From NCBI GenBank assembly GCA_963765205.1, contig CAVXVB010000011.1:96001-160000 (forward strand): 64,000 nt of DNA, written 5' to 3'. Origin of the DNA: an uncultured Verrucomicrobiae bacterium (GTDB lineage: Bacteria > Verrucomicrobiota > Verrucomicrobiia > Opitutales > JABDGR01). The notes below the pieces were generated by a model. It was not told where the DNA came from. It did no database searches and saw only the letters and a list, made by a program, of their open reading frames with translations. Every line of letters starts with the position of its first letter. Within the stretch, counting starts at the first letter, position 1. This document shows, piece by piece, positions 3,190 to 16,233 of this stretch. Made by a program: the position numbers and the translations under genes.

Positions 3190-4707
3190 ATGAACTACAA
3201 CCTGCTCAAAACGCTCAGTGTGCTCACTGGGTGCGCCCTGTTCGGTGTTCTCACCGCCCAGGCCCAAGACAAAGCCACGCTCGACCTCCTGGTTAAAAAG
3301 GGGGTCATTAGCCAATCCGACGCGGATTCCATCGCGAAGACATCCGGAACGCCGATCGTCGCGACGAAGTCTTCCACCGTGCAAAAAATCCAACTCGAAG
3401 GCATGATCCAGTTCGATTACAATGATCTTACTGCAAGCGACGACACTAAAAACGCCAATCCGGTGGCCACCAACCAAATGTATTTCCGCCGCGTGATGAT
3501 GGGTGCCAAAGTGGATTTGGGCAATGATTGGGGTGGTGAAATTATGATGGACTTTGCCGCGGGCCAAATCGCCGACCAGCCGAAATCCGGCCTCTCTCCG
3601 CAAGCGTATCCCACAACCGCCTCTACCGTCGGTGGCCAGCAAGGGATCCAATACATTTCCCAGGATATGTTCGATAAAATTGCCATCACCAAACAGATTC
3701 CAGGCTATGGCCAGTTCGAGGCCGGGTATGACAAAACAAATTGGGTCCAGGAAGAGATGACTCCCACGTCGCAGTTGCCCGCCATAGAACGCTCCATCGC
3801 CACCCGTTACTTTGATGAGTATTATGGCTCGCAAACCGCGTATCGCCTGGCTTTTGGCCAGCGCCGCACCGGTTTGTTTTGGAATGGCACTGCTGATGGC
3901 ATTCCGGGGCTATACTATAGCGCGGCCCTCACCGACGGCATTCAAAGCCAGATCAACTTCACCAACGTGGGCGGCCTTGACAAAATCGGCGCTTGGACCG
4001 GTGCAGGGTTTAAGGGCAAGAATGACGACATGGGCCTGACCTACGACTTCGGCCTAAACCTCGGCTATTCCGGTGACGGCAACAGCCAAAACACGATCAA
4101 AAGTTCCGCGACCATATATTCGCCGTACACGGGATTGGCTGCTCCGGTCAACCAGACCGCCCAGTCGAATGATACCTATGGCTACAATCCCTACATCAAA
4201 GTGGCGGTGGGGAATTTCAGCCTGCTCGCGGAATTCTTCCAATCCCGGTTCGAAAATGGCCGTAGCACGATTCCCTACACCTCCACCCTTCTGACTGCCC
4301 AGGGGATCGACAGCGCAGCATGGCCCTACGGCATCAATATCATTCCCGTTTACAAGATCACCCCAGACTTAGATATTGACCTACGTCTGAGCTACCTGGA
4401 CACCAACGGTCGCGGCACCGACCAAAACGGTGTCATGTGGAACGCTCCCAATGATGTGGCCGGATCGATTAATGCGAACACGGGCTTGGTCACGGCCGGC
4501 CAATATGGCCCGCTGTTTGATAATGCCAAATCCATCTATCTCGGTTTCAATTGGGCGCTCAGCCCCGGGGTACGGTTTAGCGCCGGCGTCGAGCGCGTCT
4601 GGTTTAACGGCCGGCAGACTTACACCGCGACCAATGGCACGTCGGACTTCGATGGTCCCGGCACCGTCGCGAATAACATTCGCGCGCAACTCACGGTCTC
4701 CTGGTAA
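3190..4707 (+). CDS. Outer-membrane porin, OprO/OprP-like (porin 1)
   Basis: Signal peptide ending AQA-Q, N-terminal LDLLVKKG helix, FRRVMMGAK and LPAIERS motifs, amphipathic strands, C-terminal Trp. Start moved to ATG 3190. Confidence 0.75.
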   Translation: MNYNLLKTLSVLTGCALFGVLTAQAQDKATLDLLVKKGVISQSDADSIAKTSGTPIVATKSSTVQKIQLEGMIQFDYNDLTASDDTKNANPVATNQMYFRRVMMGAKVDLGNDWGGEIMMDFAAGQIADQPKSGLSPQAYPTTASTVGGQQGIQYISQDMFDKIAITKQIPGYGQFEAGYDKTNWVQEEMTPTSQLPAIERSIATRYFDEYYGSQTAYRLAFGQRRTGLFWNGTADGIPGLYYSAALTDGIQSQINFTNVGGLDKIGAWTGAGFKGKNDDMGLTYDFGLNLGYSGDGNSQNTIKSSATIYSPYTGLAAPVNQTAQSNDTYGYNPYIKVAVGNFSLLAEFFQSRFENGRSTIPYTSTLLTAQGIDSAAWPYGINIIPVYKITPDLDIDLRLSYLDTNGRGTDQNGVMWNAPNDVAGSINANTGLVTAGQYGPLFDNAKSIYLGFNWALSPGVRFSAGVERVWFNGRQTYTATNGTSDFDGPGTVANNIRAQLTVSW

Positions 4708-4758
4708 GCGGATTGCGCTAAAAAACGCAAACGTAGTTTTGTTTTGTTGACTGGTTTG

Positions 4759-4797
4759 GGCCGCCCGGTGGCATTTGCCGCCGGGCGGCCTTTTTAT
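4759..4797 (+). terminator. Rho-independent terminator after porin 1
   Basis: GGCCGCCCGGTGGCA-TT-TGCCGCCGGGCGGCC followed by TTTTTATT. Confidence 0.85.
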
Positions 4798-4889
4798 TTC
4801 TACTCGCCACGCCCGCTGTCATGAGGTCGCCGAGCAACATGGATGGGCGCAGCGATTTTACGCTCTTCTAAAAATGTGAAAATTATCGC

Positions 4890-4966
4890 TTGACGCCAAA
4901 GCAATCCTAATTATTTTAATCTATAGAGAATCAATAAGCTATAACTCTATATAAATTAAGGAGATT
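4890..4966 (+). promoter_or_regulatory. Sigma70-type promoter with two Rrf2 (CymR/IscR)-like boxes
   Basis: TTGACG (4890)-N16-TATTTT. Downstream boxes CTATAG-N7-ATAAGC (4921-4939) and CTCTAT-N7-AAGGAG (4945-4963). Confidence 0.45.
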
Positions 4967-4994
4967 AGATTCACAACCTCAATTCCAGAATGCC

Positions 4995-5231
4995 ATGCCA
5001 ACCAACACCAAACAGTCATCGTTAGTCGAGGCCATCCCCGACTGGATGGAACTCGTCTGTCGCCGGGCCGAAAGCCTGCGTGAAGGAAGAATCGCGCTTA
5101 GAGTGGAAGCCCGCCAGGTCACGGAAATTGCGTGTGAGGAAAAAACGAACATGTTTGTCTCTTCCTCGTTGGCAGATTGCGCTGAAGATAGCTACGAACA
5201 ATCGGTTTCCAGCCCATTGGTCAAGTCATAG
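4995..5231 (+). CDS. YezD/DUF2292 (OscA-like) small protein, divergent
   Basis: PDWMELVCRRAESLREGRIALRVEARQVTEIACEEKT matches the DUF2292 pattern W...V.SL..G.V.I.V....V..I...EK. The family is usually upstream of sulfur-uptake genes. Confidence 0.6.
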   Translation: MPTNTKQSSLVEAIPDWMELVCRRAESLREGRIALRVEARQVTEIACEEKTNMFVSSSLADCAEDSYEQSVSSPLVKS

Positions 5232-5289
5232 ACCGCTCGGTGTAAAAATGAAAACCACGATCCAATCGTCCTAAAATTTTGCCTTTAAA

Positions 5290-5326
5290 CTATATCTATT
5301 TAATGAACTCTATCTTTATATAAATA
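5290..5326 (+). promoter_or_regulatory. Further Rrf2-like box(es) upstream of porin 2
   Basis: CTATAT-N7-ATGAAC (5290-5308) and CTCTAT (5308) in an AT-rich patch, with the same half-site as 4921-4963. Confidence 0.35.
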
Positions 5327-5391
5327 AACGTATTTAACAACTCACTCTTTCACCCAATTCCGCCCTTTGAACTTTAGCCCAACTTTAATTT

Positions 5392-5463
5392 CCGACCGGT
5401 CCACCGGCGGATTCAACCAACCCACGCTCAAAACCATATCCAGCCTGACCGATCGATCGGAAG
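5392..5463 (+). promoter_or_regulatory. Twin 19-nt hairpin motif in the porin 2 leader
   Basis: CCGACCGGTCCACCGGCGG (5392-5410) and CTGACCGATCGATCGGAAG (5445-5463): same length, shared CYGA-CCGR-TCNA-YCGG pattern, compensatory G-C/A-T stem change. Confidence 0.55.
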
Positions 5464-5489
5464 CTGGAACCCGCACAACAAGACCCGTC

Positions 5490-6875
5490 ATGAACTCATC
5501 AACTAAACTGAATAGGTTCAGTTTCATTCGCGCTGTGACCAGCGTTGCCGGGATAGCGGCAACGTTGTTGCTCGCCTCCGCCAATCCCGCCCGCGCGCAG
5601 GATGAGGCGACGCTTGATCTCTTGGTCAAGAAGGGCCTGATTAGTCAGTCCGACGCCGATTCGGTGGCAAAATCGTCCGCTGCCGTCGTCGTCGCCAAAA
5701 ATCCTGATGTCCAAAAAATCAAGCTGCAAGGCATGATACAGTTCCAATACGACTGGGTCACGACCAAGGACAAGGCACCCAACTCCTCCGATCCGCCCGC
5801 TACTAATCAATTCGAGTTGCGCCACGTTTATCTTGGCGCGCAAGTGGACCTGGGCAACGGCTGGGGCGGGGAAATCCAGACGGACTTCGCCGCCACGGGC
5901 GCGACCCAAATGTCCGCCGCGCCGCAATCGCAAAACACCCAGAACTCCATCGAAAAGGCCATCATCACCAAAAAGGTGGATGGTTATGGGCTGGCGACCC
6001 TCGGCTTCCAAAAGACGCAGTTTTCCCAGGAAGAAAATACGCTGACTTCCGAAATTCTTCCGGTGGAACGTTCCATCGCGACCAATTACTTCACCCGCCC
6101 CTACGGCGGCCCGACGACCGGACGCCTCGGTTTTGGCAACCGCCTGGCGGGCGTTTATTGGGACGGCGTTCTGCCTGGCAATGGATTCTATTATGGGGGA
6201 GCGCTCACGACGGATATTGAGACCGCCGCCAGTCTGGGCGGCCCGGCCACGGGTGCTCCTTCCTATAATGAATTCGGTTATTGGGCCCATGCGGGCTACC
6301 AAGGCAAGCTTGATGACTTGGCCTACAAGGCCGGCCTCAATTTCGGCTACGCCGGAGACGCCAACAGCACGCCTGCTGCCGGAGCCATACCCGCCCAAAC
6401 CAACTCCATCTGGGGCTACAACCCGTATGTAAGTCTGTCCTATGATCACTTCGCGCTCACGGCGGAGTTTTTGCAAGCCGTCGTCGGAAACGGCCGGGCC
6501 GGTGCCGGAGGCAAAACGAGTGACGCCGCCCCTTACGGCTTGGTGATCACCCCTTCCTACAAAATCAACGATCAGTGGGAACTGGTGACACGGTTTAGCG
6601 AGTTGTCCACCAATGGGCGCGGCGCTACCATTAGCCAGCAAGAATGGAGCGGCGGGAATATAATTAATGCCGCCGGCACCTTCACCAATGACTTCGACAA
6701 TGTTTGGTCGGCCTATCTAGGCGTCAACTGGTATATCGTCGGCAACAGTGTCAAGTTGTCGGCGGGCTACGAGTATGCCCGATTTAGTGATCGGCAAACG
6801 GTGGCGAACGGCCCCTTCAACGGCGCTCCTGCTGAAGTGAGTTCCTTTCGCATGCGTTTGCAGTTTCTGTTTTGA
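5490..6875 (+). CDS. Outer-membrane porin, OprO/OprP-like (porin 2), paralogue of porin 1
   Basis: AQDEATLDLLVKKGLISQSDADSVAK vs AQDKATLDLLVKKGVISQSDADSIAK, ILPVERSIATNYF, C-terminal Phe. Start at ATG 5490. Confidence 0.78.
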   Translation: MNSSTKLNRFSFIRAVTSVAGIAATLLLASANPARAQDEATLDLLVKKGLISQSDADSVAKSSAAVVVAKNPDVQKIKLQGMIQFQYDWVTTKDKAPNSSDPPATNQFELRHVYLGAQVDLGNGWGGEIQTDFAATGATQMSAAPQSQNTQNSIEKAIITKKVDGYGLATLGFQKTQFSQEENTLTSEILPVERSIATNYFTRPYGGPTTGRLGFGNRLAGVYWDGVLPGNGFYYGGALTTDIETAASLGGPATGAPSYNEFGYWAHAGYQGKLDDLAYKAGLNFGYAGDANSTPAAGAIPAQTNSIWGYNPYVSLSYDHFALTAEFLQAVVGNGRAGAGGKTSDAAPYGLVITPSYKINDQWELVTRFSELSTNGRGATISQQEWSGGNIINAAGTFTNDFDNVWSAYLGVNWYIVGNSVKLSAGYEYARFSDRQTVANGPFNGAPAEVSSFRMRLQFLF

Positions 6876-15351: not shown

Positions 15352-16233
15352 GAGCTTATCCGTAAATAAAAGTTGTTCGTCTGCAAACAATAAGCGCGCT
15401 GGCGAGACAGAGCAAGGCTTCGTGGGAGGCGGCGGTTTTCTCAAACCGCACGAGGAGTTTGCGGTAGCGGTTGAGCCAGGAAGCGGTGCGTTCCACCACC
15501 CAGCGACGGGCTTGGCCGGTGGATCGGCGCGGGGCTGGTTTGGCTCCGCGGGCAGGCACATGCGGACGGTAGCCGTATTGGCGCATGGTGCGCAGGCCCG
15601 GTTTCCCCCAGTAACCCTTGTCGGCACACAAATGGGCCGTGCGCCGGTCGTGGCGCTGGCGCAACGTGCGGCGCACCAGCGTCACGTCGTGTTCATTGGC
15701 CCCGGCGACGATGAGCGACAGCGGGACGCCACGGGCGTCCACCAGCACGCTGCGCTTGCTCCCATTTTTTTCCCCGGTCGGTGGGGTTGGCTCCCACCGC
15801 TTCGCGCGCCAGAGGGGCCTTGACCAGGGAGCCATCGATGCTTTGCCACCGCCACGCGATGCCCTCCAATTCATCGTAGTCGGCCAGACCGGCCCGCCAC
15901 AACGCCTCGAAGAATCCGGCGGCGTGCCACTGCTGAAAGTATTTGTGCACGGAACTGGCGCTGCCATACCGGGCCTTGGACAGCGCTTTCCACTGGCAAC
16001 CCGTGCGCAGCACGTAAACCACCGCCTCGAAGATGCGTCGAGGCGCGAGGGCCTTGCGGCCCGCGCCTGCGGCGCGACGGTAGCGCCCGCCCGCCTTCCG
16101 GCCGGCGCGCGCGGGAACCAAAGGCTCGACTTTGGCCCAGAATTCATCAGAGATTTCCCAGGAGGATAGTCGCGGCATCCCCGCAGTTTATCCCGCCGCC
16201 TTCTCAACGCAATCCTTATTTACGGATAAGCTC
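15352..16233 (-). mobile_element. IS5-family insertion sequence, 882 bp
   Basis: 18-bp perfect IRs GAGCTTATCCGTAAATAA / TTATTTACGGATAAGCTC; TTA duplicated at 15349-15351 and 16234-16236. Confidence 0.95.
15356..16178 (-). CDS. IS5-family transposase split over two frames, probable programmed -1 frameshift
   Basis: orfA has YVLRTGCQW and SIDGSLVKAP; orfB has GSKRSVLVD, ADKGY and RWVVERTASWL. The frames join at an A7 run (15765-15771). Confidence 0.9.

Follow-up and report, generated by a model that had tools for sequence, protein, structure and literature searches.

A conserved bulged-A RNA hairpin between yezD/DUF2292 and sulfur-uptake genes, and an apparently rewired copy ahead of a Verrucomicrobiae porin

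Does a YezD-like microprotein act on a pair of small RNA hairpins and thereby govern the porin gene that follows them? The question is raised by a locus in a 64,000-nucleotide stretch of DNA (the window) from an uncultured Verrucomicrobiae bacterium, the genome of which (G000; 4.02 Mb, 12 contigs) is 92% complete. From the letters alone, an earlier, sequence-only reading had proposed that two bulged hairpins in a porin leader are bound by the product of a DUF2292-like open reading frame (ORF) upstream and form a sulfur switch. All features of the locus lie on the plus strand. An intrinsic-terminator-like hairpin at the end of porin 1 (4758..4799; 15 pairs, 13 of them G-C, and a T-run) parts that gene from a unit with a promoter-like site (4890..4917; a consensus match only, its TTGAC box equally placed in same-family relatives), an operator-like copy A (4929..4960), a 78-aa ORF (4995..5231), an operator-like copy B (5298..5329), the two hairpins (5392..5410 and 5439..5468) and porin 2 (5490..6875; Porin_O_P, E 1.2e-15), whose ATG at 5490 stands 29 nt past the second stem. 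The two porin genes (3190-4707 and 5490-6875) are tandem Porin_O_P paralogues, 47% identical and the sole two found by tblastn in G000. Porin 2 is the equivalent of the porin encoded ahead of sbp-cysTWA in relatives, with 49–60% identity to five of them as compared with 51–75% among those relatives themselves. Elsewhere in the window, overlapping reverse-strand frames (15356-16207) resemble what we take to be a frameshifted IS5-type transposase.

The twin elements are present as described. The pattern given by the sequence-only reading has two exact matches, 5392-5407 and 5445-5460, with an offset of 53 nt. Where the first copy has G-C (5399/5404) as the innermost pair of its stem, the second has A-U (5452/5457), a compensatory difference in a structure that is conserved in relatives. 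Hairpin 1 has a lower stem of three pairs, one bulged A (at 5395), an upper stem of four pairs and a 4-nt loop; hairpin 2 (core 5445-5463) also has a 4-nt loop, lies behind a 34-nt linker and gains a 6-bp basal stem (5439-5444/5463-5468). There is no third match to the pattern anywhere in the 4.02 Mb of G000, which proves little given that the pattern was derived from these two copies. Both hairpins form in the minimum free energy structure, with a weak folding signal (z = -1.74; 7 of 200 shuffles are equally good), and their main support is conservation in relatives rather than folding. Hairpin 1 scores 28.5 bits with a hairpin model whose training set includes this copy, and at 28 of 29 nt it is identical to its counterpart in a genus-mate (G004; E 3.2e-6), the top match of the 661-nt region within the family. 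The A-U innermost pair of hairpin 2 is unique among 45 alignment rows. Given the conservation of the one and the compensatory pair of the other, the window RNA seems to be still under selection. A search of the 64-kb window against Rfam 15 returns no family at gathering score, and at E 10 a single chance match (E 1.2) that lies off the hairpins.

The window pair belongs to a hairpin family whose consensus has a lower stem of two or three pairs, an invariant single-A bulge, an upper stem of four pairs and a loop that varies, being 4 nt long in 52 of 72 cases and 4–8 nt overall. Two C-G pairs are invariant, and these and the bulged A are conserved beyond what pairing alone explains. Enrichment downstream of DUF2292 genes in several phyla, as suggested by the sequence-only reading, is borne out. 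At 53 Verrucomicrobiota DUF2292 loci (30 of the 32 matches from sampled genomes plus 23 further loci), a hairpin finder written after inspection of these same loci detects at least one hairpin near the stop codon in 46 and two in 26, at a median spacing of 54 nt; same-length controls yield 1/53 upstream, 5/53 in coding sequence and 1/53 on the opposite strand. Out of sample, a model built from Verrucomicrobiota only finds a match no more than 250 nt downstream in 35 of 80 GTDB loci, these being the best 80 of 541 confirmed DUF2292 loci, and 43 of 49 model matches fall within 3% of the bases searched. By groups assigned from record titles, the 35 comprise Gammaproteobacteria (12/21), Alphaproteobacteria (6/8), Betaproteobacteria (4/9), Planctomycetota (4/5), Verrucomicrobiota (3/8), Bacillota (1/22) and others (5/7). 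The loci are phylogenetically related, so that these counts overstate independence. The remaining 45 of the 80 have no match within 250 nt; the link between YezD and the hairpin is not obligate. Among Bacillota yezD loci (Paenibacillus, Cohnella and Butyrivibrio; L092-L163), hairpins were seen at other positions, in L157 and L163 upstream of the gene and in L128 and L140 at 1.3 kb past it; a terminator accompanies three of these copies.

Covariation, too, is found as the sequence-only reading had expected. Because alignment A5 had been selected for upper-stem pairing, we ran a test that fixes the outer anchors only (125 loci, eight near-duplicates removed): both free positions pair in 73 of 78 matches as compared with 7 of 42 in flanking DNA, a result matched by none of 5,000 permutations. 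The lower pair, which was unselected, is C-G in 19, U-A in 17 and U-G in 7 of 45 rows. A reading of the motif as a DNA palindrome was rejected, as the G-U pairs, the variable loops and the strand bias favour RNA. What emerges is a conserved cis-acting RNA hairpin, often paired at a distance of about 54 nt, that lies between yezD/DUF2292 and sulfur-uptake genes and has no Rfam match; the sulfur context that had been proposed is likewise present, as sulfate-uptake genes stand at the relatives' loci. The literature searched, which did not extend to the supplementary motif tables of PMC11109978 and PMC5737381 or to subscription papers, holds no description of the hairpin or of an RNA-binding role for YezD.

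Across 150 genomes of the order, matches at E 1e-3 occur in 22 of 30 DUF2292-positive genomes, a largely circular figure, and in 2 of 120 DUF2292-negative ones, and 12 of the 13 best matches inspected in negative genomes sit inside long open frames. In one negative genome a T-run comes after a full motif, which then looks like a plain terminator (L224; G042:C24:4005-4034). A wide regulon in the order was considered and found little support, given that only 2 of 13 secondary matches in DUF2292-positive genomes precede a gene start, one ahead of an SBP gene (L220) and one ahead of a TonB-dependent receptor gene (L206). These scans bear on an explanation in which the hairpins have nothing to do with YezD: they would stabilize the mRNA, position the ribosome or serve another factor or a metabolite, with yezD merely residing in the same sulfur operons. 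The many yezD loci that have no hairpins fit this explanation, as does the persistence of the window hairpins without a canonical YezD, and the distance from the last hairpin to the start codon, 22–37 nt in 56 of 76 loci, would suit a structural role. However, convincing copies are rare in DUF2292-negative genomes, the two C-G pairs and the bulged A are conserved on top of pairing, as in a recognition site, and the native sulfate operon of G000 has lost yezD and the hairpins together. We consider independence from YezD unlikely.

How a hairpin tied to YezD could work is suggested by what its 3′ arm is computed to do when the hairpin is open: it may pair downstream instead, either in a start-codon-hiding helix about 30 nt away or in an intrinsic terminator. 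In 38 of 64 loci (76 minus 12 with a distance outside 18–60 nt), the start region becomes at least 1 kcal/mol cheaper to open once the motif is forced to form, as compared with 18.9% of 768 spacer shuffles. The gain exceeds that of all 12 own shuffles in 26 of the 64, where 4.9 would be expected, and it stays below 1 kcal/mol in 26 of the 64, with an energy model that may miss a real switch. In five loci (L128, L140, L157, L095 and L090) the 3′ side of the hairpin is the 5′ arm of a terminator-like stem. Control of antitermination or translation, as suggested from the sequence, has computed support in many relatives, in which a start helix or a terminator competes with the hairpin; at the window locus the suggestion is not supported, with no terminator between the ORF and porin 2 and a computed gain of 0.0 kcal/mol.

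The canonical YezD protein is modelled as a helix (13-24) and two strands (28-35 and 38-46) at a pLDDT of 80. Structure prediction also supports a homodimer, formed through strand 1 and the helix: the pair scores 0.52 and the best control 0.02, a mark that, for calibration, 20 of the 30 solved homodimers and 1 of the 23 single chains attained, and the runs share at least 88% of contacts at a pLDDT of at least 73. No solved relative was found by sequence, no usable Atlas match was obtained, and fold searches with canonical YezD yielded nothing by Foldseek at E 0.001 and a top Z of 2.4 otherwise, which has no bearing on whether the fold is new. From its basic and aromatic residues we infer that the conserved face of YezD may bind RNA. 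In the mechanism that we propose, an Rrf2-type repressor would leave the promoter first and the leader switch would act afterwards; a YezD homodimer would then use its conserved surface (F/Y, H, Q, K-x-R) to bind the hairpin and keep it folded, and the downstream genes would be on. The hairpin element is probably an on-switch for sulfur-uptake genes. That it is a real, uncatalogued regulatory RNA for which YezD is a plausible protein partner is the family-wide model that we favour, on balance, as somewhat likely.

The window ORF fits this model less simply. The sequence-only reading took it for a DUF2292-like gene and named a missing DUF2292 match as evidence against its proposal. At the level of family membership its view is not upheld: the ORF has no match to PF10055 (22-bit gathering cut-off) and none to the NCBIfam OscA model (NF033785, cut-off 85 bits), with which two relatives score 31–33 bits. 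The homology itself stands. The ORF matches 8 of 9 same-family genomes at 31–41% identity, and in the seven matched genomes sampled for PF10055 the best matches are DUF2292 proteins above the cut-off. Aligned by HHalign with a 52-row DUF2292 alignment it reaches 97.6% (E 4e-12), and the 52-row profile, run over six frames of G000, finds the ORF only (E 2.2e-7; next E 1.1). By such profile comparison the ORF is clearly homologous to, and derived from, DUF2292, and it is the sole YezD-like gene of the 92%-complete, 12-contig assembly, in which no canonical YezD is found in any of the six frames. The conserved surface did not survive. G31, I45 and E49 are retained among the near-invariant DUF2292 columns, whereas H38, D39, G40, Q44 and R52 are altered. 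Part of the change at 40-41 goes back to the same-family YezD type; all seven YezD proteins of the family examined (L035-L037, L039, L041-L043) have HD[QH]Q for the HDG[KR] turn, a step toward the variant. Structure models give the variant and canonical YezD the same helix and beta-hairpin elements, the variant's alignment having included canonical rows, which biases its model toward the canonical fold.

Is the ORF then simply decaying? Compared with seven orthologues its pN is 0.38, against 0.075 among the orthologues, the extra changes are spread over all three codon positions, and GC3 is 0.59 as compared with 0.81–0.95; rrf2 in G000, by contrast, evolves normally. These values would fit a pseudogene in a relic block. 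We dropped the reading of a lone pseudogene once a variant subfamily of 10 clusters emerged, four of which turned up after profile construction. All ten are open frames of 76–84 aa with a core identity of 35–89%, common derived residues and an intact hydrophobic pattern, in protein databases that contain open frames only, so that broken copies would be invisible. None carries a precomputed Pfam domain, and of the other variant proteins compared with PF10055, P0122, P0124, P0125 and P0126 have no match and P0127 reaches 11.9 bits. Nine of 11 aliphatic positions are hydrophobic in 10/10 variants, F/Y30, H38, Q44 and R52 are retained in 0/10, and acidic residues are fixed at position 30 (E/D) and position 48 (E), both in 10/10. 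As judged from these residues, the pattern is that of a folded protein freed from constraint on one face, and the window variant, which keeps the helix and beta-hairpin core and has a longer tail, probably still folds but lacks the conserved family surface. A decaying pseudogene is very unlikely. Searches for sister genes gave nothing above 62 bits in 400 genomes of the order or above 48 bits in 400 of the class, only two unrelated weak matches in a metagenome scan and none confirmed in viral scans.

The genomic setting points to a block that has moved. In relatives, the gene order is rrf2, promoter and operator, yezD, two hairpins, porin, sbp and cysTWA. The native sulfate operon of G000 (C9:595883-600411; L060) consists of rrf2, an operator fused to the sbp start, cysT, cysW and cysA; it is without yezD, hairpins and porin, the block that the window carries downstream of a paralogous porin. 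Scored with an operator matrix built on seven relatives, the native site comes top in G000 (47.8), followed by copy A in the window (31.5; rank 2 among 8.04 million positions) and copy B (30.1), with the next site at 23.8. As the second- and third-ranked scores both fall in the window and copy B is alignable to copy A, the operator has been duplicated; copy B sits past the ORF and ahead of the hairpins. The operators are presumably bound by Rrf2, judging from site conservation and the adjoining rrf2 genes in relatives. The gap from the stop codon to hairpin 1 is about 165 nt and contains copy B, as compared with 10–43 nt in 26 twin-hairpin relatives. At its start, a stretch colinear with G004 (5228..5285) may be a decayed remnant of hairpin 1 and spacer from an older copy of the unit; against three of seven relatives it does better than 296 or more of 300 shuffles, against three it is not significant, the hairpin model gives no match there, and we regard it as suggestive only. 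A yezD 5′ stub behind copy B was considered and rejected as not significant in most relatives. The hairpin model has no match ahead of porin 1. Upstream of that gene, at 2961-2975, the 3′ end of the native operator has a 13-nt match on the reverse strand that coincides in part with a perfect TTGACA box; the site is absent from the top 25 of the full operator matrix. In the native operon, a shift of one base near 597050 interrupts sbp. The shift may be an indel of the assembly, other C9 genes being split too, and on that ground we rejected a reading of sbp as a pseudogene. In four relatives, a gene of about 280 aa lies between sbp and cysT (L050:9568-10410, with counterparts in L052, L053 and L054); it has no Pfam match at E 0.001 and no match in G000.

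What do the hairpins do at the window locus? There is no terminator-like site from 5231 to 5490 and no competing helix, and forming the motif alters the cost of opening the porin 2 start by 0.0 kcal/mol. With neither in place, porin 2 is probably open by default, a switch stuck on. Four genus-mates with canonical-type YezD (G001-G004) have gains of likewise only 0.0–0.3, and the missing competing helix is thus a genus trait that predates the variant rather than its consequence; this weakens the idea that the change of the ORF locked hairpin 2 on. Our reading is that the window holds a displaced, rewired copy in which the ORF would be maintained as a variant without the family surface, hairpin 2 would fold unaided and leave porin 2 translatable, and control of porin 2 would be mainly transcriptional, through the two operator copies. 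The model of the sequence-only reading, by contrast, would have the variant bind the hairpins with a retuned surface and gate porin 2. G000 has no YezD-like gene other than the variant, which stands ahead of the conserved hairpins in the same orientation and retains R32, R36, R40 and K50 with a core net charge of 0. However, other variants have core charges down to -7 and vary at these basic positions, the RNA shows no matching change, no alternative fold or terminator is there to be gated, and an operator copy intervenes between the ORF and the hairpins. We judge gating of porin 2 by the variant to be distinctly unlikely.

The window hairpins are conserved though no canonical YezD is found, and a strict model of YezD as their ligand does not account for this unless the gene lies in the unassembled 8%. 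If it did, the variant could be a natural antagonist that pairs with canonical YezD by its retained core, is blind to RNA and damps the switch. The core is indeed retained and the surface lost in 10/10 variants, which have gained the fixed acidic E/D30 and E48, and the hairpins look as though their ligand remained. Against this, the six frames of the assembly hold no canonical copy, yezD is gone from the native site, genomic context among the 10 clusters is known for the window copy alone, and the model of the canonical dimer places F27, the counterpart of E30 of the variant, in its interface, so that a dimer with the variant is hypothetical. An antagonist is, in our estimate, rather unlikely.

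Taken together, a family-wide on-switch with YezD as partner and a rewired window copy with a surface-remodelled variant form a combined reading to which we give an even chance. A bolder version, in which DUF2292/YezD proteins are unrecognised dimeric RNA-binding microproteins that activate sulfur uptake through the bulged-A hairpin, by antitermination or start-codon release, and the window encodes an RNA-blind acidic paralogue, dominant-negative or with a new partner, is doubtful. The analysis gives the DUF2292/YezD/OscA family of small proteins, which has long lacked an assigned role, a concrete candidate function that can be tested cheaply, together with a 19-nt candidate target that is missing from Rfam. 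By retaining the fold without four conserved residues of the surface, the variant subfamily hints at which face probably binds RNA, and it offers a natural control, either a ready negative control or possibly an antagonist. G000 also exemplifies how protein gene, hairpins and porin can leave a sulfate operon as one block.

Several known systems resemble parts of this arrangement. In BglG/SacY/LicT antitermination, the RAT hairpin overlaps an intrinsic terminator and the proteins carry a CAT domain. Some copies of the YezD-linked family, in other genomes, likewise overlap the 5′ arm of an intrinsic terminator; the window locus is without one between 5231 and 5490, and YezD is a stand-alone small domain with no CAT-domain match. 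For CsrA, the window GGA lies in the 3′ arm and not the loop, and no PF02599 protein is found in the 92%-complete G000, with matches in 3 of 14 control genomes. ANTAR proteins are proposed to grip two small hairpins as a dimer, so that a competing structure is excluded, and their target has 6-nt loops with A1 and G4 and a linker of 5–12 nt (PMC3369931). The pairing of small hairpins with a dimeric protein that is proposed to bar a competing structure is common to both; unlike the ANTAR target, the window hairpins have 4-nt loops and a 34-nt linker, our family conserves its stem and bulge, and YezD is no relative of the ANTAR protein. A search for ANTAR proteins gave no match in G000 and none in the control genomes either. 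The pan motif consists of simple bulged-A hairpins, mostly in tandem and read as the site of a dimeric protein, with two bulged A residues and a position upstream of pantothenate genes (PMC2864571); the YezD-linked hairpin differs from it in its single invariant bulged A, its porin and sulfate ABC context and its lack of an Rfam match. Closest is the DUF2292/YezD/OscA family itself (PF10055; NF033785). The window protein falls under both cut-offs and is without the conserved surface, and it shares with the family a homologous core and a family placement ahead of sulfate-uptake genes, in line with oscA, which is reported to be co-transcribed with a sulfate-binding-protein gene and linked to chromate resistance (PMC3596284).
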